A DNA stretch of 64,000 nucleotides from an uncultured Planctomycetia bacterium (lineage in GTDB: Bacteria; Omnitrophota; Gorgyraeia; Duberdicusellales; 4484-171). The stretch's first letter is position 1, and each line of letters opens with the position of its first letter. Position numbers and translations under genes: made by a program. The notes below the pieces were generated by a model that was not told the origin of the DNA, did not search any database, and was given only the letters and a program-made list of their open reading frames with translations. Positions 1 through 22,032 of this stretch are shown one piece after another. The stretch lies in NCBI GenBank assembly GCA_964635565.1, contig CAZWON010000002.1, positions 14,936-78,935 on the forward strand, written 5' to 3'.

Positions 1-3000
1 TTACTGGCACCTCCTCGCCCAAAGAATAAGGCAAAAGATTGCTCTTTAAAGCTTTGCCGACAGAACCCAGATACCAGGTTGCCATAATTCCCTCGCCGGC
101 GCCAATGCCTAAGGCCCAGGCAAAATTCCTCCCTGTGCTTTTTCCCCCTTGGGAAAGAGGAGTAAGCTCGTAATTTATGGCGTTTATTATACCTCCCGCT
201 GAAGCTCCATAGGCATATTTTATTACCTTGCCTAATCTTGTCCTATTCCATATATCAACTACTAAATCCTCGCCCTTGCGGGAAAAGGGCACAATTACCG
301 CCGCCCCCATTAGTCCGCCGGTAGCAATGTTTTGCCATTGCACGCGGCCGTGTTTATAATACTGCTCTTTTATGGCCCTTAAGAAAGCTATGAAGGGGCT
401 ATTTTCAAGAGCACTTTCCTTCTCGGAATATTCAATAATCCCCTTAATCGCAGGATAAATTACTGCGCCAGTGGCCGGCCAAGACACATAATGCCATCCT
501 GACGCAGGAGAAAACGCCTTCAGCACTATCCCGCCAAACTTACTATTGGCAAATCGCGCAGAAGCGCTGTTTGCGATTTTATCTATGTTTTTAAGTTCAA
601 TTGAACTTAAACCAGTCTTTTCTGCCTGTTGTAATATATTGGCTTTAGATTTAACTTTTCCAAGAAATTTTTTATCAAGCGTTTTTACCTCCCTCACAGT
701 CAGAATTTCTATCTCATCAATCCTGTTTATCTTTTTAAGCTCATCCAGAAGCTTTCTTAAACTACTACCTTTAGGCAATTTCTCAACATTAACTTTTCTT
801 AACTCCTTTATACTCATTCCTTCTATATCAGCAGAGCTTTTAACCGGTTTTTTAAGCTGTTTGCTTAAGGTAGAGAAGTCCTTTTCTGTTATTGGTGTTT
901 TTGGTGAGAGGTCTTTCAGAGCTTTTTGGGCTTCTTCTATCGGTGCTGCTTTTTTAATAAGCTCTCTTGCCTTTTTGACTGTAATCCCTCTCTTGGTTAA
1001 CTTCTCTCCTATCTCTTTTGCGTCTTTTATGCTTTCTGGGTTTTCTTTTACGAATCTCATTGCTCGCTCAGAACTTGCTATTTTACTCAATCCCACCAAA
1101 GAAGAAAAAGCAGCTTCAAAAACCAAACCCTTAAGAAAACCTGTCATAAAATGTCTGTCGATTGTCAAAGCGCCTATTTTGTTATCTCCTGCATAAGCAG
1201 CAAGGGAAGTATTCATTACCGCCTCAATCTGCCCCCACAGATAAGCACCACTGGCAATTGAACGTGTAAATTGTGGCATTGAACCAAAAGCCTCTCCTTT
1301 GGCAATTGCCGGCATAACCCCTCCAAGAAGGCCGATTGCCGCCAGAACCATATTCTCCTCACTTAAGAATTTGCCTCCTATAGGCTTTCCTGTCCTAAGA
1401 TAACTTATCATATTAGGAACGCCTAAGCTTAAACCTTCACTTACTCCCACCCCTGCTAAAGTCCTTGCTCCCGGGCTCATCTTAGAAAACACCTTCCCCA
1501 CCGGCCCTAAACCTGCGCCCAATAAAGCTATGGGAACGCTTTGTACGCGTAAGTCATCCATTTCTAAAGCAGTACTGTTAAGAACAGAAGCAAGTTTCTT
1601 GCCCCTAAATACTACTGGCAAAACGAGTGCCTGGGCCGTATTAAAGGCATAAACAGTTGGCATAATTTTTGCTGCCCTCTGGGCAAACTCTCCTGCTTTC
1701 CCGGGAACCTCTCCTAAATTTTTAGCCAAACCTCTATATCCGCCAAGGGCTCCTGCTATATTGCCTGTGATATAAAACGCATTTACAAGAGCGCGCGTAG
1801 AATCAAAAGTTTCTTTCCCAGGCGGAAGGCTCCTTAAAGTTTCTACTGCTCCCAGCAATCCTCTAATTGAATCTGCTGGATTAAGGGAAAAAGCAACTAA
1901 ATCCACCCCCAAGCGGGCAGAAGGATAAGAGCGGAAAACGCCATAAGGAAAAGCCAGAAAACCCCATCCCCGTCCATCCTCTTTAGCTTTGGTGGTAATT
2001 GCGCCTAAAACTTTTTCTGTTTCAAAACGGGCTGACTTCTCTTCCCTTTCAACAAGCCCGTAGTTACCTATCAACCTCCCAAATCCTTTAAGTATCTCTC
2101 GGCCAGGGTTAAACAAAATACTCTTTGCAAAAGCTTCGCAGACAGAAGTATTTTTATCCGTAGGGTAATATTTATCCACTCCATAAGCTACAACCGTATC
2201 AACTCCTAAAGCACCTAAGGTTATTTTTAGAGCCTTTGTAGATGTAAAAATTCTTCCGCCCCTCAAAAGAAAATACGCCTGCAAAAATCGGACAGGAGCA
2301 TTTATCGCTATATCTTCGATTGACCGGCCTTCGTAAACGTCATAGGCAGCTCCGACCGCTGTATAGCCAAGAGCAATCTTAGCAGGATTTGCCAATGCTT
2401 TTGTTGCTAATCCAATTATATCTCTTAAAAGTGTGGTGCTTCCTGTTTCCGAAGCAAGAACTGCAACCTTACCAAGAACGCCTTTTGCCATATTCCAAGA
2501 AAATGACAGTGCTTTCGCGGCTATCAATACTTTGAAGTAGCTATCAACTATTTTAAATCCCATATCCTTATTGCTAAATCGCTCATTATAAGTCTCAAAA
2601 CGTGTCCCCAATGCGTTCCTCTTAGCATTCTCTACAAGATTCATCCACTCCTGCGCTCTCTCGGTCCATTTTGCACTATCACCTATTTTTGCTAAGATTA
2701 AATCACTCCCTATAGCTAAACCAGCATACACAGATATTGCTTCATTCTTAATCCGATCCCTGACATCTTCGTATTTGTATAAATTATTTTTTTCTATACT
2801 CCCATCCAATTTCATAACCGGTGTATAAACCTCTAAATTCTTTATTCCCTTCTTACTTAAAATCTTATCCATCACTATTTCTCTCTTAAAAGGCTTGCCT
2901 GTGATACAGCTTATACCTTGAATAGTCTGATGTGTTTCAATAACTAAATCACCATTGGGTGCTACCCCGACAATCTTATTCTGAGGGTTGGATAATAAGA

Positions 3001-6000
3001 GCGCTGCTTCTGGCGCTATATCAGCAGGAAACTCCCTCTTGACAGGACCTGTTGTTTTAATTTTCTCTCGTGAATCTTTGGTAAGATTGCCGTTGTGGTC
3101 AAATTTTACAACTTTACCGGAATACTCTACCGGCCTTGTCTCTGCCACAGAAATATTGCCGTGGTAGACTTTTGTTTCTGTTCCCACAAGCTTCTCGCCA
3201 AGCTTCTCGCCAAGCTTCTCGCCTCCCGTAACTCTGAGCCTGGCGTTTCCTAAATTCACCGTTGGAGCGCCTAAGAGAGGAAAGTTCATCTTCAATTCCC
3301 CATTATGATAAAGCGCCATCTCTTGATTTAAAGAAAAGGTTTCAGCGTCGGTATGGTCTTTAGAAAGTGCACTTTCAGGAGGCCTTCCTTGGTGATTCCC
3401 GGTAGGGTATTCCTGCTTTGTGTTTATAGGAGAGGGGCCAATAAAACCTTCTCCTTTACGGGAAACTTTAGCCATAAAATAACTCTGCGATAAAGTGCCG
3501 TAATCAACCGTTTCTAAATTGCCGAATACGCTTTTGAACTTTGTAATGCTTTTATTTGTGTGTAAATCTTGAGAATCCAGACGAACTTTATAGAATTTAC
3601 CGTCTTCTGATAAATATAAATACTCAGCGGGATTTTCAGCAATATCTACGGCTTCTTTAGAAATAGTCTGCCTAACCCAGAGCCTTCCTTTTTCGCCGCC
3701 GCTAAGGCTATAATCTATATAAGAACCATTTGAAAAAGGAACCATTCCTTTAGGAGAAACAACATAGGCTGTATAATGCTCAGTAAGTGCAAGGCTGCCA
3801 TCTGCATAAGGCACAAGTTTAACTTTCCCGCTCTTATCCTGTTGTACATAACCCCTGCGTTTACCTATAAAATATACTGTTTGATTAGAGAAACTGTTAG
3901 CTAATTGACTTGGCAGGCCTGTTTTGTCAGTATACTGGTAACGCCCGATAACCGTAGTATCTTCATATACCCGAGAAGAACGGATATAGTTTATAAAACC
4001 TGTCTTATCGGATACGAAAGTGTCTCCTCCAGCACTCTTAAACAATACACCATCAAAAACACCGGAAAAAGAACCATTGGAACTTACATTCACTAATAAA
4101 GGATTGCCATTATTAAAGTTTCCTCCCAGCGCATTATTAAGCGTCTGCATATCATTTCTGTCCTTACCCTTACCTGATAAAACGTTGTATTTATCAATAT
4201 TACCGTATCCGCCTTCTACACTGATTAAAGTAGGAACCCCCGGGATGCCGGCGCCGGAATAAGCAACAGAGCTTAAAACCGGCACTAATTCAGTTATATG
4301 CCGAACATTTGCTTTCCCTAATTGAAGTTTGTACCCAGGGATAGGAGAATTAAGTAAATTACTATTGGTGGGAGAAAAATTATACCATAAAGACCCAATT
4401 GCCTTTGATTCCTTATTATACATCTCGCCTAATACATTTTCTTTAACAACTTTTGTAGCCCGACCTGTTCCTTTTCCGCTCTTAGGAATATTTAAAGCTC
4501 GTGATACTTGAGGCGCATTTGGATTCTCAAAACCCAATGCCAATAGCCCTTTTGCCGGACCTCTATCTATAACCTGAAATCCCCTATAATTATAAGTGTA
4601 AATTTTCCCAGCCTCCTTTATGTAAAAGTTAGAAGATATGATATCTTTTGGCGTTAAACTGCCAGGATTAGCAATAGAGTAATGCTGGTTACCGTTTTTA
4701 TCTACAGAAAAATTGTAAATGATACCTGGTCCCCAATATAGTAAAAATCCGGCTTCGCTTTTTGTGCCAGTTTCTTTATTTAGAGTAAGCGTTCCAAAAG
4801 GCAACCTCCCTTTTCCTCTTTTCCGATATTTTTTGCCATCCCACTCAAGAGACGAACCTTTATCCCACACCACTCCTCTAAAAAGAACTCCGTCTTGAGC
4901 AATTTTATAATACCTGAGGTTAAAAACTACAGACCAAGGGTTAGAAACAGGGACCGGCTTATCTACCCTATATTCTGCGACAGGGACAATAACATTAGAG
5001 GGCAATTTACCGATTTCCTCACTGTTTTTACTATTACCAACTTTATTAATTATGCCTGTTCCTGTTCTATTCTCAGGAGTTATCTTTTTTGGTTTTACAA
5101 AAAGAGGGTTCTTTATATCTCCTTTTGATAAAGGAATATCAGAGAAGCAAGCAAAGGGTACTCTCTTTTTATAAGCAAGGGTACTGCCTCCACCCTTTGT
5201 TATTATATCAATAAGGTCACCAGGATTATAAGAATATGTGGATTGAAATATCCTCGTACCATCTGTTGACCGCACAGAGACGGTAGTCTTTCTTACTTTT
5301 TTATCATACTGGTTTTTAATCTCTATAGAGGCTACTCCCTTGCCGGAAAACTTAACAAACATTTTTCCTAATAATCTTAACTCCTTATGAGACCACGTTC
5401 TTTTATCTACAAAAGGTATTATTATTTCTGCAAGTTTTTTTATGGTTGGATGGTTAAGCTTATCTAAAGAAATTTTTCTCAAGACGTTTTCTATAAAATT
5501 GCTGTTATTATTGTCTTTACTTTTTATGGCGGTGACAATAGATTCCATAATGGTAAGACCGAGTTTTTCATACTGTGCTCCGTCGGAATAATAAAATTTA
5601 GGTATATCATTGTAAAAACCATAATCTCTATTGTGCTCAGCTGGTCTGCTTCCGGAAGAAGTAGTAATTTTAAAATTAGTGGGATATGGCAGACCTCGTG
5701 GATCCTGCTTTATATCAAAAACCAACTGTTTAGAGTTATTGTAATTAGGTATCGCAAATTTCCGCACCTCTGATACGCCCTTTTCATTGAGTACTATGAA
5801 ATTAACTATGGCTATATTAGGGCCACAGCCCTGAGGCGAAACTCCAAATCTTGTGCCTATTCTAATATCGTAAGGGCTGAGAGCAAAGTTCCTCCCGAGG
5901 ATAAAATCATTGTGCCGGATTTCTACCCCTCTTACAGCATTATTGTATTCTTCGCGAGTTATTGCCTGTGAATACCCTGTAGGGCGGTTTGATATAAAAT

Positions 6001-9000
6001 TATTCATACCTTGAACAACAGAATCCTCCAATGGAGTTCCTTGAAACATATCTTTGAAATACCCAGCTAATTTAAGGCCTATTGTTCCCCGACGGATATC
6101 CCCAGCGTCTAAGGACGCTTTCCCGTCCTTATCCAATGCCTTAAAAACTTTAACTGTGCCATCTTCATTGAATTTAATCCAATTGCCGGGAGCATTAGCT
6201 ACCAAAGCTGAGTCATAAACTGGTATACCTTTACCTTCATAACTCTCTTTTCTTTCAGCACTGGTCGTAAAAATAATGCGTCTAAAATTCTCTATAGTAT
6301 TGACATTAGGAGGGTTTGGGAGGGAAGAATCTCCTTTTCTAAGCAAAGATACAAAATTCCAAAGGACTGCTCCCAGCCCTCCTTCTATTGTATATTCATT
6401 GCTTCCCTTCTCTGTCTCTTTAAAATGCAAACTCGTCACTGCTCCTCCTAATCCCTCTATCTTATTAGAAAGCCAGATAAACTCTCCTCCAAGGCTATTA
6501 TTTGCATCTTTATCCAACAAATAAAATGTCCTTCCCTTGGGATTGCTTATTAAAGAGTTTATTCCAAAAGAAGCAGCCGCAGGTATATTCATATCAGCAA
6601 CTATAACCCCATCAACCATTCCGCTAATATTATGGTGAACCGCTGTAAATCTTGCAGGAGGCATCTTTTCTCCGGAAGGAGAAATAAAACCTTCTCCTAT
6701 AAGACCTCCTTCTATCCCTATATAAACATCGCCTTTAATCTGATGGGGATTATATACTTCATACACTGACCAACCGTCTCTATCCCTTTCTGTCCCAGGA
6801 GTAACAACTGTAATAGAACTATCTTTTGGCCAGGTTAAAGTATCAGGAAAATTAACTATAGAACCTCCGCCGAAACTGGGAGTAAGTCTCTGGTTGGTAT
6901 AAGAAAATTCAACCGTTCCTTCAGCATAAAATACATTACCTGAACCAACTTTATCAACTGTTAAATTTGTGGTAGAAAATAGAGGATTGCGGTATGCAAG
7001 GATTGGCACTGATGAAGATTTAGAATTTTTACCTGATGGTTTTTCACCAAAGCCCGTTACAATCCCGGCAGAAGCGTCAACCAAGCTAAATACTCCTTTA
7101 GTTATAAGACGGGGGTCAACATTCATAATATCGGAAAAATACAACCCTCCTTCTCCTGCGAAAGTTAAAGATAATCCGCCTTTTCTATCCGGCCTTAAAT
7201 ATGCTGTATTTATAGGGACCACCGCTGGTTTAGTGTCTCCTTCTAAAGGAACACTAAAGTAACTTGCTCCATAGAATTTGCCCTCTACTTTTAAAGACTG
7301 GCTTACTCTTTTCCATTTATGGTTTAAATTATTTAATTTCTCAGTTAAATTTTTTAATTTTATTTTTAGAACTCCGCTTTTTTTCGGGGAATTTAAATTC
7401 TTCATTTTCCATTCTGTCTTAAGTATTTCCCCTCTTACTTCTTCTATTTGTTTACCAATTTCTGATAAAGAATTATTCTCCCCATAAGTAACCTCATAAA
7501 TCTTATCTAATAGTCTTTCAAACATCTTTTGTGCACCAGGAGTATCTCCTTTTGCACCAATAACCATCTCTCCTGTATCGGCGATAAAGATACGGACATT
7601 TGCAGGATTAAAATACCCTGTTGCCATATTGAATTCTTTATTGGTAAAAAATCTTGAATTCAGAATAGGAATAACCCACGCTCCAGAAGCTTTAATTACT
7701 CTTCTCTGTACCTCAAAATCTATTTTTTTAGACCGTTCTACAGGAGTTAAGTTTAATTTATTAACGTCTTCAACTACCTCCTTGTAAATATCTCTGTAAC
7801 TTTTAAGCATATTCATCCTTAAGGTGCCATTAGGGCCATAATAGTAATATCTTTGATTGCTCTGCAATTTTCCCCTGGGCGTAAAAACAAAACCATTCTG
7901 AGTAACATAATAATCATTTGGATTATTGCCGTAATAAATATTTAAACCCTGGACTTCCGTAGTAGGAGTATTATCAATAATGGGCATAGTCCCGGTAAAA
8001 GATATAAGCACTGGCGCATCGGGATTCTGTTGGGCAAATTTTAGAAAAGCCTCTCTGTTCGTAATTTTTTCAAGCGTGCGAGGGTTTAAGGCCTTCGGCT
8101 GTTGGGTTAACTTGAATCCTGGAACTTCCGCGAGGCTATCTGTATTCGGCTTAGTTCTTTTTGAAAACGATTGGTTTAATGGGTCGGTAAATATACTTAT
8201 ATCGCCTGTTGCACGGCCAGCAAAAGAGAAGGCTCCTGAAGGAGAGAATATAATGCCTTCGTTTATATATTTATCTCCTTTGGGAGTACTTATAGAAAGA
8301 GAAACGCCTTTAGAAGCAATCAAATTGGCTTCTTTATAAAAAGGGGCACCTTTGGAAATGCCTCCAGGAGTAATAATACTGCCCTCAATATCGCCACCAT
8401 TTTCCACGCTGTATAATTTGTCATACTCTATAGGTTTATTAGAAGTATCAAAAATCCGAATTTCCCTGATAAATCCTCCGCCAGCAAAATTTTTACGGGA
8501 TGCCCATCTTACATTTAAAAATGAAACTTGGGGAGTGAAAGTTCCTTCACTATTTAGTCCTTTTGACCTCAGATTGTAAGTAGCAAAAAAGAATCTCTGG
8601 CTATTTGTGCCTGAGCCAACTATGGAAGATTGGCCTTGCAAGAATGTAGTTTTCTTATAACCGGAAGGGCTTTCTTTAGACCGACTAAGATTAACAAAAC
8701 TAAGACTTACGGGGTATGGCGATTTATCTATTAGCTCAAGGGCTAGGTATGAAAGAGGATCAGATTGAACATCTTTTTTAAACATCCCATATATCTCCTT
8801 TCCCTGTGCCTGTAGTTTATTTTTGGGCATATTCTTAAAAAACTTAATAATGTCTTCTCCTTCTCTTTCAAAGAATGTCTTGGTGATTTCTTTTTGAGAT
8901 ATTCTTTTTTCAATAATTGACCACGGAGAATAACCTCTTTGCCGTAATTTTAATACACCATGCGAAGACTCTATCCTTCTGCTAATAATGGTAGCACTAT

Positions 9001-12000
9001 TGGGATGGGGAGAATAATAAGGAATAATCGTTACTTTGTTCTCCTCAATAAGTTTCTCTTTACGTGGTTCTATATTAACTTCCCTTCCAGATAAACTACT
9101 GTACTCAGTAAATGATGATACAGTAGTAAAATCTTCTCCTGTAGTAGGGTTATATTGCTCATAATTTACATAAGCTAACAGATTTCCCTTAGGTGTGTTT
9201 ACCGGCGAAACAATAGTGAGACTGGATATATGAAATCCAGTAGGAGCTCCTGATGCATTTATGGTATACTCTTTTGTTCCTGAGTTAGAGCTGACCAATT
9301 TAAGCCCCTTAAGGTTATCAGAAGGAATATCAATAGATGAACCACGCATCATTCTCTCTATTTTATCCTGAGGAAGAATGGGAGAAAGTAAAGCGCTCAT
9401 TTGTGTCCAAGTATCTTTATACAATTTCTCAGGCAAGAAAGATACTATCCCTTCTGCACCATAATGAGAACTATCAACTTTATATATGTCTGCATCAGTT
9501 GCAGCAGCAAATGTAGAACTATAAAAACTACCTTCTCTTTGGTTCCAGACATATGTGGTTTTGGGGGTGTTGATAATGAGTTCCAATTTTCCCCTAATAG
9601 CTGCAGCCCCTAACACTCCTCCCTTATTTTTATTACCTGCTATACCAGCATAAAGATAATAAGGCTGTTGTATTAAGTCGGGATTGTTAGGTACTGTAAT
9701 ATTTCCCTTGTTTATTCCCTCTAAATACTTAGGGTTGAAAAATATTTCTAAAGTATGGAGCGTAGAATTAACTTCTCTGCCTTCTACTCCATATTGACCA
9801 GTAAAATTCACTCCATCACGCTCTCTCATAAGAATAGGATCACGTGCCCAAGATTTATCAAGTTTAACCTGCCGACCTACTTCCTTATGGGACATAAACA
9901 AACCAAGCAATCCTCCATTAGTCTTAACAGTTTCAAAGTATGCATTATCAGGTAAATTTACGACAATATCACCTTTTAATGGCTGAGGATGTAAAAGTGT
10001 TGCAGCCTCCTCTATATTGGCTATCCTATAAAAATCTCCATTGTAATAAAAACCTAACTGCCCATCAACAAGACTTAATTTCTCAGACTTTAAATTTCCT
10101 TCTTTATCAAATAAATCCAACGGTAGTTTTGATAACACATCAGGGGATAGTCCTGCTTTTGATATACTTTGCCGGTCAGTGCCGTATAGAGGGTTGTAGA
10201 TCATATCCAGAACAGGCATAACCACAGGAATCATTAAAACATTCATATTCTCCACTGCAGCGTAATGGAGAGTATCCTGAGTGTATCTAACCCAGGAATT
10301 GGTAAGAGAAGGGGTGATTGAGGTAAGATAGCCATCCTTTACAAATTTCCTCCAGGAATCATAACCATACATCTTCATTGCCCTGTCAGCATTTGCTTTA
10401 AAATCCGCATAACCTCCAAATTCGGCAATTTTATTCAGATACTGGACTTCACTCCATCCACCCTCGCCTTGAGTCCATATTGGAGAAGTTCTACCCCAGG
10501 TAGTATAATTAATAGCTAATTGGGCAAAATTATTCTTAAAACTATTCCAAAAAGTGCCCGCGCCAATTGCTCCTATGGAAGACAGCGCTATCGTGCTTCC
10601 TAAATAAGCAAGGCTGGAGGTTTGAAGGCGGGTTAAACCCCACTTATTCTTACCTGTTTTTTCATCATACTCTCCACCGATAGACTCTAAACCTACTGAG
10701 ATAGCTCCGGAAAGCACTCCTCTTCCTATAGCTTTCCAGAGATCGGCCCCCCCGAGACTTTGCCCGTCGGCCTTAACAGAGACTAAAGCACCTGCGCCTT
10801 CACCAAGCACGCGGGAAAATTTAAACTTTTCACCAAGAAGACACTCTACTGCTAAGGCAGTAGCCTGATAAATCAATGAAGTCCTGGCATCGTTCCATGC
10901 TAATTTTATGCCTCCTAAAAATCCTCCGCCAAAGTTGTCGGCAGAAAGGTTAACATAATCGCGGCCATAATACCCTCCCAAAGAATCTCCATTTACCACA
11001 CCAGGCTCTACCCCATTAGAATTCTGCAAGTCTTCCGATGATATACGGCCCCAGACTTTTCCATTTTTTTCATCAACAGGCGCTTTAACGGTAAGATTTA
11101 TCCCTAACGCGCCCATTGTTCCGCTAAATCCCGCGTATCCCGCGAATCCTCCTGCTATAGAAGCAAGTTGATTGGCAGCAAAAGGATTTTTCTTATAAAA
11201 ACCTGTATTTTTTATAGCATTGTAAGCTAAAATACTTCCTCCTCCTACAGCTGCGCCTTTAAGCCCTCCTACTATCGCTCCTGTAAGAACAGGATGCCTA
11301 TTCATCCATCCCCCAATCCCTAACCACCCTGAGTTTGAAGGAGAGGAAGAAGGAGTATACCAAGTTTTACTGGAAGGTATGCTCGCTGCTCCTACTAATG
11401 CTGAACTGAGTGTATACCCAAAAATTTGAGCTGATGCAGGTCCCATATCCAGTTCTTGCGCGGCGAAGGTAGTAAAGGCATTACCTACTGTCCCCATAAA
11501 TGCTCCCTGAGAAAAACTATGAAGAGCCTTCGTCCAAGTGAAATCTTGCGACAATACACCTCCTCCTATACCAATAGAAGCTATAGTAGTTACTGCGGCT
11601 ATTGCTATATCCCCCCAGGAAGGATCCTTAAAAATCTCATCAAATTTGGGAAGGTCATATTTGCGCGAATATGCTCCTAAAACGGACTTTGTCTCTTCAA
11701 TATCAAGGGGCTTTCTAAAATTAGAAGTTTTATTGGAAGCTGTAGCAATATAGCCACTAAAATTATTTAAAAATTCGTCATAAGAATAAACTTTAAACAC
11801 TCCATTGCTAATACAATAAAACTTATTATCTTTTATCTCTTTTACCACCACATAGTGCCCGCTTAAAAAATGGGCAATAAAAGGAGTAAAATCTTCTAAA
11901 ATATAGGAAGGAGTGTAGGGTTTAAATTTTAAAGAGTAAAGTTTATAGCCAAAAAATTCTCCTGCTTTTATAATAGCATAAAGAGAGTTTTTTAAATCCT

Positions 12001-12433
12001 GAGGTTTTGTTTCCAGATTTATATTCTGAGAGTTTTCTAAAATATCAATAGAAAAAATAATACTGGATACTTCCGAAGAAGTATTTTGCAAGCCAGAACT
12101 ATTTAATAAATCATATAAGGCGCGCGTTCCGCAAGGTTTTTCCTTAAGCAACCTATAAATTTGTTCTATTTTTGCTTTATTTAAAGAAGAAACACCTTTA
12201 AGTTTTAAAACCCTTCCTGAAGGAAATCTTACTCCTTTTATATGGGGGTATTTCTGTAGATTCTCTAAGATGCTCTTTATGATATCCGCAACATCCAGTT
12301 TTTTAAAGTTAGAAGAAGGGATATTAAGAAGAAGGTGGGATTTAGGAGGAATGAAGAAATTGGTGCTACCAAAAGCCCAGACTACATCCTGGTATAAAAA
12401 GGCAAAAATAACAACAAAAGCAACTATCCTCAT
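1..12433 (-). CDS. Giant secreted/surface protein (>4144 aa, 3' end beyond window). N-terminal signal peptide, then a peptidase C39-like papain-fold domain, Gly-zipper segments and long beta-rich T/N/S/G/Y regions.
   Basis: Manual translation of the reverse complement from the ATG at 12433 stays open in one frame down to position 2, with no stop in 12.4 kb of AT-rich DNA. The track lists no minus-strand ORFs over this stretch, consistent with an ORF open at the window edge. N-terminus MRIVAFVVIFAFLYQDVVWAFG. KPCGTRALYDLLNSSG and SGHYVVVKEIKDNKFYCISNGVFKVYSYDEFLNNFSGYIATA resemble the C39 Cys and His motifs. The only RBS is the weak CCCTGG. An alternative in-frame ATG lies about 75 nt upstream. 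Confidence 0.7.
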   Translation of the reverse strand, partial: MRIVAFVVIFAFLYQDVVWAFGSTNFFIPPKSHLLLNIPSSNFKKLDVADIIKSILENLQKYPHIKGVRFPSGRVLKLKGVSSLNKAKIEQIYRLLKEKPCGTRALYDLLNSSGLQNTSSEVSSIIFSIDILENSQNINLETKPQDLKNSLYAIIKAGEFFGYKLYSLKFKPYTPSYILEDFTPFIAHFLSGHYVVVKEIKDNKFYCISNGVFKVYSYDEFLNNFSGYIATASNKTSNFRKPLDIEETKSVLGAYSRKYDLPKFDEIFKDPSWGDIAIAAVTTIASIGIGGGVLSQDFTWTKALHSFSQGAFMGTVGNAFTTFAAQELDMGPASAQIFGYTLSSALVGAASIPSSKTWYTPSSSPSNSGWLGIGGWMNRHPVLTGAIVGGLKGAAVGGGSILAYNAIKNTGFYKKNPFAANQLASIAGGFAGYAGFSGTMGALGINLTVKAPVDEKNGKVWGRISSEDLQNSNGVEPGVVNGDSLGGYYGRDYVNLSADNFGGGFLGGIKLAWNDARTSLIYQATALAVECLLGEKFKFSRVLGEGAGALVSVKADGQSLGGADLWKAIGRGVLSGAISVGLESIGGEYDEKTGKNKWGLTRLQTSSLAYLGSTIALSSIGAIGAGTFWNSFKNNFAQLAINYTTWGRTSPIWTQGEGGWSEVQYLNKIAEFGGYADFKANADRAMKMYGYDSWRKFVKDGYLTSITPSLTNSWVRYTQDTLHYAAVENMNVLMIPVVMPVLDMIYNPLYGTDRQSISKAGLSPDVLSKLPLDLFDKEGNLKSEKLSLVDGQLGFYYNGDFYRIANIEEAATLLHPQPLKGDIVVNLPDNAYFETVKTNGGLLGLFMSHKEVGRQVKLDKSWARDPILMRERDGVNFTGQYGVEGREVNSTLHTLEIFFNPKYLEGINKGNITVPNNPDLIQQPYYLYAGIAGNKNKGGVLGAAAIRGKLELIINTPKTTYVWNQREGSFYSSTFAAATDADIYKVDSSHYGAEGIVSFLPEKLYKDTWTQMSALLSPILPQDKIERMMRGSSIDIPSDNLKGLKLVSSNSGTKEYTINASGAPTGFHISSLTIVSPVNTPKGNLLAYVNYEQYNPTTGEDFTTVSSFTEYSSLSGREVNIEPRKEKLIEENKVTIIPYYSPHPNSATIISRRIESSHGVLKLRQRGYSPWSIIEKRISQKEITKTFFEREGEDIIKFFKNMPKNKLQAQGKEIYGMFKKDVQSDPLSYLALELIDKSPYPVSLSFVNLSRSKESPSGYKKTTFLQGQSSIVGSGTNSQRFFFATYNLRSKGLNSEGTFTPQVSFLNVRWASRKNFAGGGFIREIRIFDTSNKPIEYDKLYSVENGGDIEGSIITPGGISKGAPFYKEANLIASKGVSLSISTPKGDKYINEGIIFSPSGAFSFAGRATGDISIFTDPLNQSFSKRTKPNTDSLAEVPGFKLTQQPKALNPRTLEKITNREAFLKFAQQNPDAPVLISFTGTMPIIDNTPTTEVQGLNIYYGNNPNDYYVTQNGFVFTPRGKLQSNQRYYYYGPNGTLRMNMLKSYRDIYKEVVEDVNKLNLTPVERSKKIDFEVQRRVIKASGAWVIPILNSRFFTNKEFNMATGYFNPANVRIFIADTGEMVIGAKGDTPGAQKMFERLLDKIYEVTYGENNSLSEIGKQIEEVRGEILKTEWKMKNLNSPKKSGVLKIKLKNLTEKLNNLNHKWKRVSQSLKVEGKFYGASYFSVPLEGDTKPAVVPINTAYLRPDRKGGLSLTFAGEGGLYFSDIMNVDPRLITKGVFSLVDASAGIVTGFGEKPSGKNSKSSSVPILAYRNPLFSTTNLTVDKVGSGNVFYAEGTVEFSYTNQRLTPSFGGGSIVNFPDTLTWPKDSSITVVTPGTERDRDGWSVYEVYNPHQIKGDVYIGIEGGLIGEGFISPSGEKMPPARFTAVHHNISGMVDGVIVADMNIPAAASFGINSLISNPKGRTFYLLDKDANNSLGGEFIWLSNKIEGLGGAVTSLHFKETEKGSNEYTIEGGLGAVLWNFVSLLRKGDSSLPNPPNVNTIENFRRIIFTTSAERKESYEGKGIPVYDSALVANAPGNWIKFNEDGTVKVFKALDKDGKASLDAGDIRRGTIGLKLAGYFKDMFQGTPLEDSVVQGMNNFISNRPTGYSQAITREEYNNAVRGVEIRHNDFILGRNFALSPYDIRIGTRFGVSPQGCGPNIAIVNFIVLNEKGVSEVRKFAIPNYNNSKQLVFDIKQDPRGLPYPTNFKITTSSGSRPAEHNRDYGFYNDIPKFYYSDGAQYEKLGLTIMESIVTAIKSKDNNNSNFIENVLRKISLDKLNHPTIKKLAEIIIPFVDKRTWSHKELRLLGKMFVKFSGKGVASIEIKNQYDKKVRKTTVSVRSTDGTRIFQSTYSYNPGDLIDIITKGGGSTLAYKKRVPFACFSDIPLSKGDIKNPLFVKPKKITPENRTGTGIINKVGNSKNSEEIGKLPSNVIVPVAEYRVDKPVPVSNPWSVVFNLRYYKIAQDGVLFRGVVWDKGSSLEWDGKKYRKRGKGRLPFGTLTLNKETGTKSEAGFLLYWGPGIIYNFSVDKNGNQHYSIANPGSLTPKDIISSNFYIKEAGKIYTYNYRGFQVIDRGPAKGLLALGFENPNAPQVSRALNIPKSGKGTGRATKVVKENVLGEMYNKESKAIGSLWYNFSPTNSNLLNSPIPGYKLQLGKANVRHITELVPVLSSVAYSGAGIPGVPTLISVEGGYGNIDKYNVLSGKGKDRNDMQTLNNALGGNFNNGNPLLVNVSSNGSFSGVFDGVLFKSAGGDTFVSDKTGFINYIRSSRVYEDTTVIGRYQYTDKTGLPSQLANSFSNQTVYFIGKRRGYVQQDKSGKVKLVPYADGSLALTEHYTAYVVSPKGMVPFSNGSYIDYSLSGGEKGRLWVRQTISKEAVDIAENPAEYLYLSEDGKFYKVRLDSQDLHTNKSITKFKSVFGNLETVDYGTLSQSYFMAKVSRKGEGFIGPSPINTKQEYPTGNHQGRPPESALSKDHTDAETFSLNQEMALYHNGELKMNFPLLGAPTVNLGNARLRVTGGEKLGEKLGEKLVGTETKVYHGNISVAETRPVEYSGKVVKFDHNGNLTKDSREKIKTTGPVKREFPADIAPEAALLLSNPQNKIVGVAPNGDLVIETHQTIQGISCITGKPFKREIVMDKILSKKGIKNLEVYTPVMKLDGSIEKNNLYKYEDVRDRIKNEAISVYAGLAIGSDLILAKIGDSAKWTERAQEWMNLVENAKRNALGTRFETYNERFSNKDMGFKIVDSYFKVLIAAKALSFSWNMAKGVLGKVAVLASETGSTTLLRDIIGLATKALANPAKIALGYTAVGAAYDVYEGRSIEDIAINAPVRFLQAYFLLRGGRIFTSTKALKITLGALGVDTVVAYGVDKYYPTDKNTSVCEAFAKSILFNPGREILKGFGRLIGNYGLVEREEKSARFETEKVLGAITTKAKEDGRGWGFLAFPYGVFRSYPSARLGVDLVAFSLNPADSIRGLLGAVETLRSLPPGKETFDSTRALVNAFYITGNIAGALGGYRGLAKNLGEVPGKAGEFAQRAAKIMPTVYAFNTAQALVLPVVFRGKKLASVLNSTALEMDDLRVQSVPIALLGAGLGPVGKVFSKMSPGARTLAGVGVSEGLSLGVPNMISYLRTGKPIGGKFLSEENMVLAAIGLLGGVMPAIAKGEAFGSMPQFTRSIASGAYLWGQIEAVMNTSLAAYAGDNKIGALTIDRHFMTGFLKGLVFEAAFSSLVGLSKIASSERAMRFVKENPESIKDAKEIGEKLTKRGITVKKARELIKKAAPIEEAQKALKDLSPKTPITEKDFSTLSKQLKKPVKSSADIEGMSIKELRKVNVEKLPKGSSLRKLLDELKKINRIDEIEILTVREVKTLDKKFLGKVKSKANILQQAEKTGLSSIELKNIDKIANSASARFANSKFGGIVLKAFSPASGWHYVSWPATGAVIYPAIKGIIEYSEKESALENSPFIAFLRAIKEQYYKHGRVQWQNIATGGLMGAAVIVPFSRKGEDLVVDIWNRTRLGKVIKYAYGASAGGIINAINYELTPLSQGGKSTGRNFAWALGIGAGEGIMATWYLGSVGKALKSNLLPYSLGEEVPV
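3187..3222 (-). repeat. In-frame 12-nt tandem repeat x3 (caagcttctcgc) inside the giant ORF, encoding (GEKL)x3.
   Basis: Seen directly at 3187-3222; the translation there is RVTGGEKLGEKLGEKLVGTE. Confidence 0.8.
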
Positions 12434-12640
12434 CCAGGGTTTAAAATGAGGCTTTTGTGTTTGAGTAAATACACCTGCTTGTGGACATTCTTGTGCTTTA
12501 TCCATTATTTTTACCACACCAGATTAACGCAGAATAAGAGAACAAATGAACACAGATGGTTATGGATTGATATAGAAAAAAGCAGAGTTCCCCCTTTCCC
12601 CCAAAAATCTATATTTTCCTTTCCAGGAATCATATTCAAA

Positions 12641-12690
12641 AAAAAGCCGAGCTACCAAATTAAGCTTCGGCAGCCCGGCTATCCTGCTTT
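12641..12690 (-). terminator. Rho-independent terminator-like hairpin on the minus strand, about 200 nt upstream of the giant ORF start.
   Basis: Minus-strand AGCCGGGCT-(18-nt loop)-AGCTCGGCT followed by T8. 9-bp stem with one G-U pair. Confidence 0.5.
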
Positions 12691-13315
12691 GCTTTTCAGA
12701 TTAACACAGAGTTAAAACAGATTATCGCTGATAAAAATATCTGCGATTATCTGTATGTTTTATCTGTGTTCATCTGTGTTTTTTGGATCCGTGGCTTTGC
12801 GCCCCTTGTGTTGCCACAAGGTTTGCCTTTTCGTGCCTTCCTTAAGAATACCATTAAAATTTAACATATTATATTATTAATTTCAAGGGGTTAGGTAAAT
12901 TTTGCCTTATTTTTGAAAAAATTTTTCAGAAAGAAGGATTATTTGTAAGTCACTAAACAACAATATCTTATGTATTATATCTCTTTTTCTCATTCAGAGA
13001 GCAAAATTTTTTTCTTTTGTAAATATAATAATTATAATCTATTTTTTAAATAATATAAAAGAAGTGAAAAAAAATAATGCCTGCATCTGCAGAAATAGTC
13101 GTTTTTGTCTTTTATTTTTTATGTAATATACTGATATTGCTAATCTTAGAGAGATATTGAAATAATGAACAATAATAAATAGTGTATTATTTTATTATCC
13201 TGCCAATGCCTCCCCTCATAAAATCCAACAATACTGGACCTCCTACAATAATAAGGAATTATGGGGAGGATAAAAAATAATTATCAGAAATTATCTTAAA
13301 AGTCTCCTTTTATTT

Positions 13316-13756
13316 TTATTCTTTCCATTCCATTCTAATAAGTTTTCTTTTACCATTAGGATAATTAACTATTGTTAATAATAAAACTTTATTATTAAGA
13401 TAATCAGTAGCCACTACTGTTATACCTTTGTTAACAGAAAATATCCGCCAGTTGGTAAATTTATTCCATTTTCCTCCTCCCTGACGGAAACTAAAGGCAA
13501 AACTTTCTATAAATCTCTTTACATATTCCTCTTTTTGCTGCATAGTCCTCAGTCTGTTAACTGTTCCCCCTACATTTATTCCCACTGCTACAAAAGAAGT
13601 CCAATCAATCAATCGCCCCACAGAAAAATCTCCTTTAATTAATCCCTTTAAACAACGGCGAGCAAAATCCACATCATTTCTTATCCCCGTGCATCCACTT
13701 ATAATAAATACAAAAACAAAAAATAAAGTAAACATATTTTTGGGTTTAATCTTCAT
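13316..13756 (-). CDS. Small lipoprotein of unknown function (146 aa).
   Basis: MKIKPKNMFTLFFVFVFIISGC gives a signal peptide with a lipobox Cys. Last gene of the Tad-like cluster. Confidence 0.55.
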   Translation of the reverse strand: MKIKPKNMFTLFFVFVFIISGCTGIRNDVDFARRCLKGLIKGDFSVGRLIDWTSFVAVGINVGGTVNRLRTMQQKEEYVKRFIESFAFSFRQGGGKWNKFTNWRIFSVNKGITVVATDYLNNKVLLLTIVNYPNGKRKLIRMEWKE

Positions 13757-13811
13757 CTTTCTCCTCCTAAGTTTAAAAAAGTTAAAATACCTAATAATAT
13801 TATTGCCAAGT

Positions 13812-16415
13812 TTAATGATCAGACCTACGGACAGATTTAATTCCTACTTTATCGTAACTATAATACACATAACACTCCTTAGTAATCTCACCAGCAATCC
13901 GTGGATTCCATATACCTAAAATGCCCACCTTTTTATTGGTAGAGTCGGGGTCTTTGCGAGTAACTTTAATCCAGGTTCTCTCTCCATTGTCCTTATAATC
14001 CTTCATTATAAGACAAATTTTTTTAACCAAAAAACACCCACTTTCTTTTTTTTCCAGACGAGCAAGTTTAAAAGGCCCGACTTCTACAGTTATGGAATGA
14101 TTCTCTAAAGTCCCTCCTCGTTTATCCTGCCAGGAATAAGTTATACTGCCTCCCCCGTCTTCCGCTCTCTCCGTGGTCTCTATAACATGAATTTGGTTAT
14201 AAAATTCCTCTATCTCGGAAAGGAAATCACTTATTTCTTTCTGTCTGCTCTCAAGAGAATCCAATACAGGCCTAAACTCATCATCCCATCTAATATCAAT
14301 GGTAGCAAACTCATCATCAACACTATTTAATTTTTCTTCCATCTCATCTAATACTCCTAAAAATGCCTCTTCGCCCATAGAAGGTATCTGCAAATCAGGT
14401 GTAGAAAGCTGTTCAACTCCTTGTTTATCCCCTTCATAAGTATTATCTTCGCAGATAGTATTACAATTTCCTTCGTCATCACATTCCTCATGGCAGCACC
14501 TGCAGGTATATCTATAATGAAAGTTGTAAGAAATCGTACCTCTTCCTTCTCCTAAATTTCTCCTCTCGCAAGGAGAATGAATATTGCCCTTTAAGGAAAT
14601 CTTTAAACTCTCAATTTCTACCTCGCCAACTAAAGAACAATTATCTTGTGAGCACACATCAAAGAACTCTCCTTCTCTAATACGATCTTTAAGACTCCTT
14701 ACAAATTCTCTTACTATACCTATCTCATCTGTTAACTTATTTTTATCATCAGCATAAAGCTTACACACAGGATTAGGAAGAATTACCCCTGATACTTCTC
14801 GTGAATCTTGTGTCCAATTACAGGGGTAAATAGGCTCATCAGGAGGATTATAATTATTACAGGAGGGTTCATCTTTTATACTTTCTTTAACTGAGCAAGG
14901 TGTGATTATGTATTCCAACTGACAAGGAGTAAGATTATTGCGAATATCAATGGTTTCCTCTATCCATTCACCCATTGCAGAAACAATAGACTCTAAATCA
15001 TTATAAAAATCGTTCCCCCTGCCAGGATTATATAAATAATCTACCCAGTCATAATTTTTGTCTAAATCCCCGACGTTGTGTTTTAATATTCCCTCGGCAT
15101 AATCAATAAATTCCTCCAGATGGTAACGTGCTCCATCTACATCATCATAGCCGGAAGGCACAGGACAACTCTCGCAATCTTTCTTATACCACCCTACAAG
15201 AGATGCCTTGTCAGGTCCTGGCTCCCAGAAGCTAACCTCATAATTGCAATCTTCCAATGCCCGCCACAACTCTATAGGAGGAGCATCACAAGATACACAA
15301 TCACATTCCACCTCTTTTCTATCCATCTCTGAGAGAAATTCTTCAATATTCTGTTTAAAAGGCCTGAGAGAATTATTTACAAAATTATTTATAACATCTA
15401 CTCCTGAAATTAAACTTTCTTTTAAATCTTTTATGTGCTTATCCCACCATACTAAAAATGCAGGAACTTTGTCATCTGTCTTCCCATCACAATCTATATC
15501 AGTGGTATCGGTAACCTTATTAGGATCATCCACTGTTTTTGAAAGAACCTGAAGAAATACGCCTTCTCTAATACGCTCATAGTCAGGAAGGCCATTAAGT
15601 GCTTTGACAAAATTTTCCATACCCGCTGCAAGGCTCTTATCCATCATAAGGCCAGTATAAATACTTGCCCCCACAGCAAGAGAGCCGCCAATAATAGCAC
15701 CTGTTGTAGAAGCAAAAGCAGTAACAACAGAACCCTGCAGTAAGGTTCCTCCTTCTAACACCCATCCCGATATTGCCTTCCCTGCCTCAAAAACCATTAA
15801 TCCACCTGTAGAACTACCAGCAGCACCCCCTCCTACCTCAAATGTTGCTCCTCCTGCGCCTGCTACTGATTGTGTTCCTCCCAAGAGACTTGCCCCTCCA
15901 GCAATTGCTGCTCCAATCATCGCTCCTTGAATTGCCCCCATCGCCATTCCTTTAAGAGGGTTATTAGCAGTAAAAGATCCTCCTATTGCCCCTCCTATTG
16001 CCCCTCCTATTACTGCAGCAAGACCAGGGCCACCAATAACAAACCCTATTATTGCTCCAATAATAGCAAGAACTACTCCTAAAAGCCCCCCTTTCTTGCA
16101 TTTCTTTGTTTTGTTGCCTAACGATTCATACAACATATGACTTTTAGATGCCAACTGAGAACCTAAATAAAGACCTGCTGAATCTATAGCATTAGAAATT
16201 TGTGTTAACCTGTTTGTGACATTTCCAATATTTATCACCACAAGAGTAAAAATTAATACAAAAATAATCATTAAAATAAAAAGAGTGGCTATTTGACCTC
16301 TTTTATATATACTTTTTACAGTTTCAAATATATAATTATTTTTTTTCTTCTGGGTAGAAATTTTAAGTCTGGTTAAGTTCTTTAAAGAAATTATCTTGCC
16401 TAAACCAGAAAACAT
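13812..16415 (-). CDS. TadG-like pseudopilin / minor pilin (867 aa) with a Gly-zipper segment and a large Cys-rich acidic C-terminal domain. Putative pilus-associated adhesin.
   Basis: N-terminus QIATLFILMIIFVLIFTLVVINIGNVTNRL resembles the TadE/G N-terminal motif (PF13400-like). GGAIGGAIGG-type glycine zipper, then about 600 aa rich in Cys, Asp and Glu. Sits in a Tad gene neighbourhood. Confidence 0.5.
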   Translation of the reverse strand: MFSGLGKIISLKNLTRLKISTQKKKNNYIFETVKSIYKRGQIATLFILMIIFVLIFTLVVINIGNVTNRLTQISNAIDSAGLYLGSQLASKSHMLYESLGNKTKKCKKGGLLGVVLAIIGAIIGFVIGGPGLAAVIGGAIGGAIGGSFTANNPLKGMAMGAIQGAMIGAAIAGGASLLGGTQSVAGAGGATFEVGGGAAGSSTGGLMVFEAGKAISGWVLEGGTLLQGSVVTAFASTTGAIIGGSLAVGASIYTGLMMDKSLAAGMENFVKALNGLPDYERIREGVFLQVLSKTVDDPNKVTDTTDIDCDGKTDDKVPAFLVWWDKHIKDLKESLISGVDVINNFVNNSLRPFKQNIEEFLSEMDRKEVECDCVSCDAPPIELWRALEDCNYEVSFWEPGPDKASLVGWYKKDCESCPVPSGYDDVDGARYHLEEFIDYAEGILKHNVGDLDKNYDWVDYLYNPGRGNDFYNDLESIVSAMGEWIEETIDIRNNLTPCQLEYIITPCSVKESIKDEPSCNNYNPPDEPIYPCNWTQDSREVSGVILPNPVCKLYADDKNKLTDEIGIVREFVRSLKDRIREGEFFDVCSQDNCSLVGEVEIESLKISLKGNIHSPCERRNLGEGRGTISYNFHYRYTCRCCHEECDDEGNCNTICEDNTYEGDKQGVEQLSTPDLQIPSMGEEAFLGVLDEMEEKLNSVDDEFATIDIRWDDEFRPVLDSLESRQKEISDFLSEIEEFYNQIHVIETTERAEDGGGSITYSWQDKRGGTLENHSITVEVGPFKLARLEKKESGCFLVKKICLIMKDYKDNGERTWIKVTRKDPDSTNKKVGILGIWNPRIAGEITKECYVYYSYDKVGIKSVRRSDH

Positions 16416-16459
16416 TTTCTTCTCCTTAAATTTTACACCCCTTTATTCTTCTCATTTTA

Positions 16460-16714
16460 TTACTTAAAAACATCTAAATCAGGATACTCCGATTCATCAA
16501 CAAACACAGGCTTATCACTATGTTGGGTATCTTCTGATGCAGCATCGCGACGGGTATCATTATAATCTTTTTCTCTCTGAACCATCTGATTATTCATCCA
16601 CACAAATATATTGACTGCTCCTACCATTAGTATTACTACAACTGCTAAACTTACGGTAAGCTCTAATATAACCTGAGTTTTTTTAATAACTTGTCTGCCA
16701 CTCATTAGAATCAT
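16460..16714 (-). CDS. Small TadE-like pseudopilin (84 aa).
   Basis: RBS GGGAGGA before ATG (MILMSGRQVIKKTQVILELTVSLAVVVILMVGAV). Shares the KKxQ...E class-III-like prepeptide with the Flp array. The N-terminal part of the track ORF 16460..16936 overlaps the upstream gene and is rejected. Confidence 0.5.
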   Translation of the reverse strand: MILMSGRQVIKKTQVILELTVSLAVVVILMVGAVNIFVWMNNQMVQREKDYNDTRRDAASEDTQHSDKPVFVDESEYPDLDVFK

Positions 16715-17702: not shown

Positions 17703-17707
17703 TCATA

Positions 17708-18559: not shown

Positions 18560-18569
18560 AGCCTCCCCC

Positions 18570-19439: not shown

Positions 19440-19448
19440 TATTCCTCC

Positions 19449-19637
19449 TTAAGGCTGGTATTGACGACCATAACCAAACACATCAACTGAGGCTTTCCAC
19501 TTCCCGCAAATTGCTTTTTTCAAATAACCCTGCACCATAATTAGTGCTAACACTATAGTTAGGATAAATACCCCATACTCTATAAGAGAAACTGCTCTTT
19601 TATTTTGTAATTGTCTGGTCTCTAATTTGTGTAACAT
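19449..19637 (-). CDS. flp: Flp-family pilin paralog (62 aa).
   Basis: NKRAVSLIEYGVFILTIVLALIMV has a hydrophobic core after the conserved EY. Member of the tandem array. Confidence 0.6.
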   Translation of the reverse strand: MLHKLETRQLQNKRAVSLIEYGVFILTIVLALIMVQGYLKKAICGKWKASVDVFGYGRQYQP

Positions 19638-19917
19638 CTTCCTCTATATTCTCGACAGTTACTAACCCTAAATAATTCTCTCCATTTATGGTGACATTAT
19701 CTATATAACTATTCGTTGTACTATAAGAAGTTACGCTATAAGTAGAAATTGAATTTATCCCTTCTGTATCATACAACATCCCTAAGGAGTCTGATTGTGT
19801 TTTAACTCTTCCTGAATAAGCTCTTTTTAAATAAATACTCATCAGAACCAAACTGGCAGATATCACAGCAACCATCACACTATACTCCAATAATGTCTGG
19901 CTTCTTTTAATCTTCAT
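19600..19917 (-). CDS. flp: Flp-like pilin paralog with C-terminal extension (105 aa).
   Basis: MKIKRSQTLLEYSVMVAVISASLVLM. Confidence 0.55.
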   Translation of the reverse strand: MKIKRSQTLLEYSVMVAVISASLVLMSIYLKRAYSGRVKTQSDSLGMLYDTEGINSISTYSVTSYSTTNSYIDNVTINGENYLGLVTVENIEEDVTQIRDQTITK

Positions 19918-20706: not shown

Positions 20707-20709
20707 CTT

Positions 20710-21033: not shown

Positions 21034-21035
21034 TA

Positions 21036-21197: not shown

Positions 21198-21199
21198 AC

Positions 21200-21574: not shown

Positions 21575-21608
21575 TCTCTCACCTCCGCTCTGTATTTCTT
21601 CTATTACA

Positions 21609-22007: not shown

Positions 22008-22032
22008 ATTACCCCCCTTTTTTTATGGAATA

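Follow-up and report, generated by a model that had tools for sequence, protein, structure and literature searches.

A giant Omnitrophota gene encoding an N-terminal C39-fold domain lies behind a c-di-GMP-I riboswitch at the end of a Tad pilus locus

This study describes a giant gene and its 5′ leader in a stretch of 64,000 nucleotides (the window; contig CAZWON010000002.1, positions 14,936 to 78,935, assembly GCA_964635565.1) from an uncultured bacterium that is placed in the Omnitrophota by GTDB. The gene, which occupies positions 2..12505 on the minus strand and continues past the window edge, follows a Tad/Flp pilus locus and is preceded by a riboswitch aptamer of the cyclic di-guanosine monophosphate I (c-di-GMP-I) class, which shares one strand with an intrinsic terminator, and its product begins with a signal peptide or signal anchor followed by a domain related to the C39 cysteine peptidases. 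With a probability of roughly 0.6, we read the gene as encoding a giant surface or attachment protein that would be induced by c-di-GMP and that is possibly self-cleaved after Gly253-Ala254.

An earlier reading of this DNA, made by a model from the letters alone (the sequence-only reading), had reported an uninterrupted minus-strand frame from an ATG at 12433 to position 2, and exact re-translation of the reverse complement of 2..12433 gave 4,144 codons with zero stops. The start codon itself has been corrected. From the in-frame ATG at 12505, 72 nt further upstream, the frame comprises 4,168 codons within the window, again with zero stops, and this ATG is the likelier start because the 24 additional N-terminal residues, MDKAQECPQAGVFTQTQKPHFKPW, align with the closest relative, because F, K and W among them are nearly invariant family-wide and because the gene calls of two independent ENA assemblies begin exactly at its position. 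Residue numbers are counted from ATG 12433 throughout, so that the added residues precede residue 1. An exact-protein look-up of the neighbouring 146-residue open reading frame (ORF) recovered the same locus at 99.6–100% identity in the ENA assemblies ERZ27227320 and ERZ1742239 and in the Logan assembly SRR6823441. Over the 3,063 codons covered in both ENA copies, the giant frame contains 0 stops, and the only indels relative to the window are of 6, 9 and 6 nt, all multiples of three. The gene call of ERZ1742239 comprises 9,152 residues and stops only where the contig does (141587 + 27456 = 169043), which gives the gene a minimum length of 27.5 kb, less than half of which falls within the window. 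The 3′ end, which was to be sought beyond the window, has thus been followed to 9,152 codons, with the frame still open at the contig end, and the protein, for which more than 450 kDa had been estimated, is indeed very large and in fact far larger than that figure, with at least 9,152 residues and over 1 MDa. The gene reaches the published giant-gene cutoff of at least 20 kb (Seymour et al., 2023), while its current length lies below the cutoff of at least 10,000 residues used by Nielsen & Lui (2026); the 9,152-residue product was not present in the protein databases searched.

In principle, so long a frame could be a product of misassembly, belong to a pseudogene or lie open by chance in non-coding DNA, and the lack of domain matches over more than 3,400 residues, the near-absence of relatives of this part and a high nonsynonymous-to-synonymous count would agree with such an origin. 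However, the chance probability of the stop-free run is about 1e-150 given the base composition of the minus strand; the locus is present in three independent assemblies, of which the two covering the first ~3,060 codons are stop-free and differ from the window by in-frame indels only; a syntenic relative (L001) has more than 4,290 open codons in the corresponding position, interrupted by one frameshift; and conservation covers both the regulatory RNA in the leader and the N-terminal domains. An artefact or pseudogene as the source of the long frame is effectively excluded. The frame change in L001 falls at 5150–5170, with the end of frame 1 at 5169 and the opening of frame 3 at 5151, and could either be real or stem from a sequencing error in a run rich in T.

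The leader of the gene contains a c-di-GMP-I (GEMM-I) riboswitch aptamer at 12665..12837 on the minus strand, i.e. on the coding strand and 160 nt upstream of ATG 12505, which scores 52.3 bits with Rfam RF01051 (clan CL00126; gathering score 35) and 71 bits with a dedicated covariance model. Its P1b loop carries an insertion of 95 nt (12690–12790, minus strand) that folds as a long hairpin with repeated ACACAGAU-like words; a related insertion of 78 nt occurs in L001, and the insertion measures 0–60 nt in other relatives. An intrinsic terminator with a 15-bp stem and a U8 tract lies at 12637..12680 on the same strand, and the aptamer's 3′ strand, AGCCGGGCUGCC, doubles as the 5′ arm of the terminator stem. 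L001 shares both the aptamer (49 bits) and its overlap with a terminator. As aptamer and terminator compete for one strand, ligand binding should prevent termination, and this arrangement predicts an ON switch. The sequence-only reading had missed the riboswitch and terminator, which form the feature of the locus that is most informative for function.

The family to which the gene belongs was delimited by several searches. A HMMER scan of 1.84 billion representative proteins with residues 1–745 gave 171 proteins with E<=1e-3, including 122 with E<=1e-10; most of these share the signal and C39 part from about residue 30, many are 3,000–7,800 residues long and many end at contig ends. When one genome per GTDB species was scanned with a degenerate pattern, for which the main-clade alignment was used since the diverse alignment A2 offered no stretch that was conserved enough, 79 loci were obtained, nearly all labelled Candidatus Omnitrophota or Omnitrophica, and the downstream frame is still open in most loci after the ~3,600 codons that were fetched. 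A single-protein scan of the GTDB genomes found nothing, and a 600-residue query of a database of 5.8 billion proteins found one relative. Relatives are named 'cysteine peptidase family C39 domain-containing protein [Candidatus Omnitrophica]' at NCBI, the closest named relative being 45% identical, and the label 'uncultured Planctomycetales' on third-party assemblies is probably a naming artefact. Judged from the distribution of these matches, the giant-protein family is Omnitrophota-specific, and the link to this phylum drawn in the sequence-only reading agrees with the locus labels, the NCBI names and the literature.

The association of the aptamer with the giant gene is conserved across the family. 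A covariance model built from 21 relatives yielded 79 matches when all 81 sequences were searched; in these 21 relatives, 94.8% of the cells of P1, P1a (with its GNRA loop) and P1b pair, with 42 double-sided changes, a level of pairing that was reached by 0 of 500 shuffles, and slid controls gave 28–45%. In 67 of the 80 loci, 127–531 nt separate the aptamer, on the coding strand, from the tblastn match to the family gene downstream of it, and in five more (L002, L003, L004, L028 and L051) it precedes an intervening gene of 391–1160 residues that abuts the giant gene in a two-gene operon. Three of the 80 loci have too little upstream sequence and were excluded. An aptamer before the giant gene or the two-gene operon is thus present in 72 of the 77 assessable loci (94%), and none was found near the gene in the other five (L007, L017, L021, L039 and L053). 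Of the loci outside the seed alignment, eight were scored with Rfam and all eight pass the gathering threshold, seven with RF03167 and one with RF01051. In nearly every locus, the CCGGGYUGCC strand forms part of a terminator hairpin with a U-run behind it. The aligned aptamers have invariant GGCAAA and CGCAAAGCC motifs, the latter reading as in canonical c-di-GMP-I aptamers, whereas the RF03167 consensus has CGCGAAGCC; the position with G in the RF03167 consensus is A in the window aptamer. Canonical recognition of c-di-GMP is therefore expected from the two motifs, the ligand contacts being those that we take to correspond to G20, A47 and C92 in Vc2 numbering, on the basis of a mapping to Vc2 that we assume.

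Two further features flank the riboswitch in the leader. The best sigma-70-like promoter candidate upstream of it, TTTATA-17-TATAAT (13031..13059, minus strand), agrees with the consensus at 10 of 12 positions, and such matches are barely enriched over shuffles. Between the terminator and the giant gene lies a putative ORF of 40 codons, MIPGKENIDFWGKGGTLLFSI... (12511..12633, minus strand), which ends 5 nt before ATG 12505 and whose first ~24 codons, including a WGKGGTL motif, are largely conserved in L001 (2100–2279). A similar GGKG(G/E) motif is found near the N-terminus of the intervening genes of 391–1160 residues, just before a hydrophobic segment, and the 40-codon ORF may be a remnant or a coupling ORF. 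Second GEMM-I aptamers occur in six of the related loci (L051, 881–968; L014, 261–402; L007, 1491–1616; L008, 79–199; L047, 1456–1562; L056, 5788–5934), where they precede tandem Flp-type pilin genes with a KGQSxLEY motif or large secreted ORFs of 2,089 and 2,504 residues, the aptamer in L056 preceding a 177-residue ORF. From these extra aptamers, c-di-GMP riboswitches seem to control several surface genes in the relatives.

The predicted protein begins with an extended signal peptide or signal anchor (12368..12505, minus strand), as had been proposed, in which a conserved n-region of 24 residues (..F..KPHFKPW) is followed by the hydrophobic helix RIVAFVVIFAFLYQDVVWA|FG. The helix spans residues 3–21, has a mean Kyte–Doolittle hydropathy of 2.17 over 19 residues and is framed by the conserved basic extension and by V-W-A|F; AlphaFold2 predicts a helix at model residues 23–47, and the pattern in 97 family sequences is F-K-S-x-F-K-x-W-I-R, an h-region and P-E-Q-V-A-Q-A (A-x-A). 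By the positive-inside rule, the residues after this segment would lie outside the cytoplasm, and the C39-fold domain is thus probably extracytoplasmic.

The C39-fold cysteine peptidase domain comprises residues 85–235 (11729..12181, minus strand), with Cys101 (12131–12133, minus strand) and His193 (11855–11857, minus strand) as the equivalents of the catalytic Cys and His of C39. The resemblance that the sequence-only reading had noticed here is borne out by three methods. The Pfam family PF03412 matches with 23.0 bits for the whole protein and 28.0 bits for the N-terminal 302 residues, the cutoff being 22, in an alignment that is limited to profile positions 46–131. A profile of 34 family sequences matches LahT150 (6MPZ) in the PDB with E=1.7e-6 and PCAT1 with E=0.01, with the Cys, His and Asp motifs aligned. 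In the AlphaFold2 model of residues -23 to 261 that was computed from the same 34-sequence alignment (mean predicted local distance difference test score, pLDDT, 85.2; predicted TM-score 0.75), all 17 Foldseek matches in the PDB with E<=1e-3 are C39 or C39-like domains, including LahT150, PCAT1, ComA, 3B79 and the C39-like domain of HlyB, with target-normalised TM-scores of 0.53–0.72 against stand-alone domain entries. As modelled, the N-terminal domain has a genuine C39 fold, and none of the 97 family members departs from Cys101, His193 or Asp130.

Directly C-terminal to this domain, residues 243–254 (11672..11707, minus strand) form a conserved motif that resembles a double-glycine leader, with the context LDIEETKSVLGA|YSRKYDL in the window, the corresponding peptide of the giant protein being LDIEETKSVLGAYS and the putative cleavage being placed after Gly253-Ala254. 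Double-glycine leaders have the consensus L(-12)S(-11)xxE(-8)L(-7)xxI(-4)xG(-2)G(-1). The family consensus, [LVI]-[ST]-[DE]-x-E-A-K-x-[IV]-x-G-[A/S/G], in which 94 of 97 sequences have the Gly and 88 of 97 the final residue class, fits it at five of six positions as a GA variant, and the form in the window is L-x-x-x-E-x-x-x-V-x-G-A. Conservation collapses past the motif. Among 71 representatives, it occurs once per protein, 56–61 residues past the catalytic His; a single other match was found in 200,000 residues, for which shuffles give 0.4. Processing of a polyprotein at multiple sites of this kind was considered and rejected, as there is essentially one site per protein. Since the motif follows directly on the C39-fold domain, the likeliest role of the domain is one cut after Gly253-Ala254, and the protein is possibly self-cleaved a single time at this position.

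The motif is followed by a conserved module of 490 residues that is rich in Gly, Ala and Ser (residues 255–745; 10199..11671, minus strand). The sequence-only reading had spoken of a Gly-zipper part; the richness in Gly holds, and the region is recast here as a conserved, membrane-like and entirely helical module, as residues 255–745 are predicted to be all-alpha, with uncharged helices rich in Gly and Ala. Between the window and L001 the module is 76% identical overall, with one mismatch in the alignment of residues 420–490, compared with ~60–70% protein identity for the flanking genes, and in the same pairwise alignment conservation is visibly lower in the C39 region than in the module. With modest confidence, we regard the module as a membrane-embedded domain without a solved fold.

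The variable region starts at residue 746 and extends to residue 4144 and past the window (2..10198, minus strand). Similarity to L001 ends abruptly after HYAAVENMN..PVV, at approximately residue 738, and beyond this point neither blastp nor phmmer --max detected any similarity to L001, although L001 has more than 3,300 further open codons. A comparison with 80 related loci and 150 representatives gave three weak local matches to the variable region, and no internal repeats were found in the window protein or in the L001 protein. Searches against Pfam, NCBIfam and PDB sequences revealed no known domain besides C39 in the window protein, which agrees with the sequence-only reading, and a second region rich in Gly and Ala is located at residues 3230–4144. 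A short GEKLGEKLGEKL repeat is present at residues 3073–3084 of the giant ORF (about nt 3180–3215), and the in-frame indels of 6, 9 and 6 nt (nt ~3310–3730) all lie close to it, at most a few hundred nt away, which points to local variation in length.

The architecture of a conserved N-terminal module followed, after HYAAVENMN, by abrupt unrelated sequence recalls the demarcation of polymorphic toxins, and the protein might instead be a delivered effector or toxin-like protein, loosely comparable to MARTX or polymorphic toxins, in which the module would form a translocation pore in a host or prey membrane, the variable region would supply cargo or specificity and the C39-fold domain would process the product. 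The uncharged, Gly/Ala-rich helices and the second Gly/Ala-rich region would suit such a function, Foldseek gave weak matches to papain-like toxin domains at ranks 18–28, and Omnitrophota have been proposed as predators or parasites. MARTX and polymorphic toxins are marked by RTX or Rhs/CdiA repeats, a dedicated secretion system, a toxin tip and an immunity gene; Pfam and NCBIfam searches of the giant protein gave no domains of these kinds, and we consider delivery as an effector unlikely. The role of 'adhesin or effector' that the sequence-only reading had assigned to the protein is, in either form, one that we infer.

The gene stands directly after the Tad/Flp pilus locus (13316..28104, minus strand), as had been stated, and the two are contiguous, with Tad genes identified by Pfam. 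From the far end of the locus, these encode RcpC (27157–28104), a secretin fused to a C-terminal TonB_C domain (25544–27160), a 722-residue CpaE–CpaF fusion that combines a CpaE-like ParA/MinD domain with a CpaF-type T2SSE ATPase (23371–25539), small pilin-like ORFs (19600–22007), TadC and TadB (17708–19439), a TadG-like protein of 867 residues with a marginal Pfam match (13812–16415; 22.0 bits against a cutoff of 22.3) and a 146-residue protein without a significant Pfam match (13316–13756), all on the minus strand. The components RcpC/CpaB, secretin RcpA/CpaC, the CpaE/CpaF ATPases, the TadB/TadC platform and a TadE/G-like pseudopilin are thus present. No significant Pfam match to Flp pilin was obtained among the small ORFs at about 19600–22600, and no prepilin peptidase was identified in the Tad locus of the window; homologous small ORFs in relatives carry KGQSxLEY-type prepilin motifs. 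The CpaE–CpaF and secretin–TonB_C fusions (23371–27160) are unusual in a Tad locus. Adjacency to Tad genes is conserved in the family, with TadB/TadC homologues upstream of the family gene in 40–44 of 80 loci, often within 1–3 kb.

Further from the giant gene, a FIST sensor, a HisKA/HATPase kinase and a REC-GGDEF response regulator are encoded in a row on the plus strand (32026..35583; Pfam), ~20 kb from the riboswitch region, with the REC-GGDEF gene at 22 kb. This cluster is a candidate local source of c-di-GMP for the riboswitch. The window also encodes an extracytoplasmic function (ECF) sigma factor with a zf-HC2 anti-sigma factor (35940–36978, minus strand) and a membrane protein of the CvpA (colicin V production) family (49764–50339, minus strand), and the remainder comprises ordinary housekeeping genes (EF-G, RpoD, DnaG, PheST, ThrS, PurH, FolC and MnmE).

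Taken together, these elements can be arranged into a tentative course of events. Transcription, whether it runs on from the Tad pilus operon or starts at the gene's own promoter, would meet the c-di-GMP-I riboswitch. Without ligand the terminator would form, whereas the aptamer bound to c-di-GMP, which is perhaps made on contact with a surface or host, would hold the shared strand and allow RNA polymerase to read through into the giant gene, such that the giant protein would be made only at high c-di-GMP. The extended signal peptide or anchor would then target the protein to the membrane with the C39-fold domain outside the cytoplasm, and this domain may cut once after Gly253-Ala254 and thereby free the remainder, i.e. 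the membrane-like helical module and the fast-diverging region of more than 8,000 residues, from the N-terminal anchor. The helical module would keep the product in the membrane or insert it there, and the variable region would most likely act at the cell surface, in contact with other surfaces or with host or prey cells, alongside the Tad pilus. An induced surface protein would fit the 3-fold higher level of giant-protein peptides that was reported for attached cells of V. archaeovorus (PMC10066038). For the wider proposal, in which an entire giant-gene family stands behind c-di-GMP ON-riboswitches at the ends of Tad operons and its C39 domain acts as a built-in single-turnover self-maturation protease at an internal mimic of a double-glycine leader, we see about even odds.

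Several points weigh against the induced, self-cleaved surface protein. In most relatives, the highest Rfam score comes from RF03167, the 'GGC' variant, for which c-di-GMP is a putative ligand, and no description of this variant was found in the main text of the 2017 paper or in the supplements searched. No adhesin domain was found in the variable region, and the nonsynonymous and synonymous codon changes between the near-identical assemblies stand at a ratio of ~2:1, which implies weak constraint on that region. The double-glycine-like motif could be merely a structural helix of the C39 domain. The ORF, the C39 fold and the riboswitch with its terminator are shown, as is conservation in the family, which extends to the adjacency of Tad genes; we infer which ligand is bound, the ON logic of the switch, the protein's topology, its cleavage and its role in adhesion. 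Finally, the canonical Asp position (His+16) is Ser209 in the window protein, with Asn210 adjacent to it, and the oxyanion Gln position (Cys-6) is Leu95, both being substitutions that the sequence-only reading had recognized; the former is Asp in 71 of 97 relatives, and the latter is Trp in 91 of 97, with Gln absent family-wide. With Ser209 and the family-wide loss of Gln, the domain could be a weak or inactive peptidase.

The same two substitutions would suit a non-catalytic C39-like domain that, in the manner of the one in HlyB, cleaves nothing and during export binds, or acts as a chaperone for, either the nascent polypeptide or a partner. The Pfam match spans just profile positions 46–131, the HlyB C39-like domain (3ZUA) is among the structural matches, and West-Roberts et al. 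mention a non-catalytic option. Nevertheless, degenerate C39-like domains typically lose the Cys, whereas here Cys101 and His193 are retained without exception and the Asp is kept in most of the family, and in the window protein Asn210 beside Ser209 could complete a papain-type Cys-His-Asn triad; a purely non-catalytic role therefore seems quite improbable to us, and a cleavage-competent domain in an induced surface protein is preferred.

Comparison with known systems places the individual parts of this arrangement. The C39 domains of ATP-binding cassette (ABC) transporters, such as LahT150 (6MPZ), PCAT1 (4RY2) and ComA (3K8U), share with the window domain the fold and the Cys and His motifs; like most family members, they have Asp at His+16, and a double-glycine-type motif is available as a possible substrate here. 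Unlike these domains, the window domain is not fused to a transporter and sits after a signal or anchor helix, its family has Trp or Leu in place of the oxyanion Gln and a longer Cys-to-His spacing, and the putative substrate motif lies in the same polypeptide, C-terminal to the domain. Adhesin and pilus genes controlled by c-di-GMP riboswitches are represented by Vc1/gbpA of Vibrio cholerae and by pilA1 and CD2831 of Clostridioides difficile, in which a c-di-GMP leader RNA turns on a surface-attachment gene via a terminator-based platform. The present case differs from these in that the RNA precedes a gene of 27 kb or more that closes a Tad operon and belongs to an uncultured, ultra-small phylum, in that the association is kept across a whole protein family and in that the P1b insertions are variable and sometimes large, with 95 nt in the window. 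The LapA/LapG/LapD system of Pseudomonas likewise involves a giant surface protein that depends on c-di-GMP and is cut near its N-terminus by a Cys peptidase. Its control is post-translational, in that LapD sequesters LapG, LapA is exported by type I secretion and LapG is a separate transglutaminase-like protease; none of the Lap components is present here.

The gene is another member of a class of Omnitrophota giant genes that has already been described. Giant ORFs and Tad genes are given as Omnitrophota traits (Seymour et al., 2023), C39 is located near the N-terminus beside signal peptides in full-length Omnitrophota giant proteins and may cleave them (West-Roberts et al., 2023, bioRxiv 10.1101/2023.11.21.568195), and a PF03412-only group of 24 proteins forms the largest architecture cluster among 916 giant proteins, with Tad cassettes in the flanks (Nielsen & Lui, 2026, bioRxiv 10.64898/2026.06.07.730766). 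The proteins described there resemble the present one in the signal peptide, the near-N-terminal C39 domain and the multi-kilobase, mostly domain-free and sequence-unique ORF that Tad genes can flank, and differ from it in SecA or dockerin domains, which are not seen in the 4,168 residues here. The terms 'riboswitch' and 'c-di-GMP' are not present in these three papers, and a full-text literature search for Omnitroph* with riboswitch and c-di-GMP returned just unrelated ComFB papers; the family-wide association with a riboswitch appears to be new. The passages of these papers do not mention the double-glycine-leader-like motif or the helical module, at which no search was aimed, and neither ON-riboswitch control of giant genes nor self-maturation by C39 at an internal leader mimic was found in the literature searched. 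Of these features, the riboswitch has good support, and cleavage at the motif stands as a hypothesis.

No feature of the Omnitrophota is as striking or as poorly understood as their giant genes, for the study of which there is no genetic system. The riboswitch before one large family of these genes is a first concrete regulatory clue, which ties them to c-di-GMP and to the Tad pilus, and with an RNA of 170 nt and metatranscriptomes it makes attachment-induced synthesis of giant proteins testable. The internal double-glycine-like motif likewise provides a precise, testable prediction for the role of the N-terminal C39 domain. If the proposal is true, such ultra-small cells would commit to transcribing 27 kb or more only when a second messenger signals contact.

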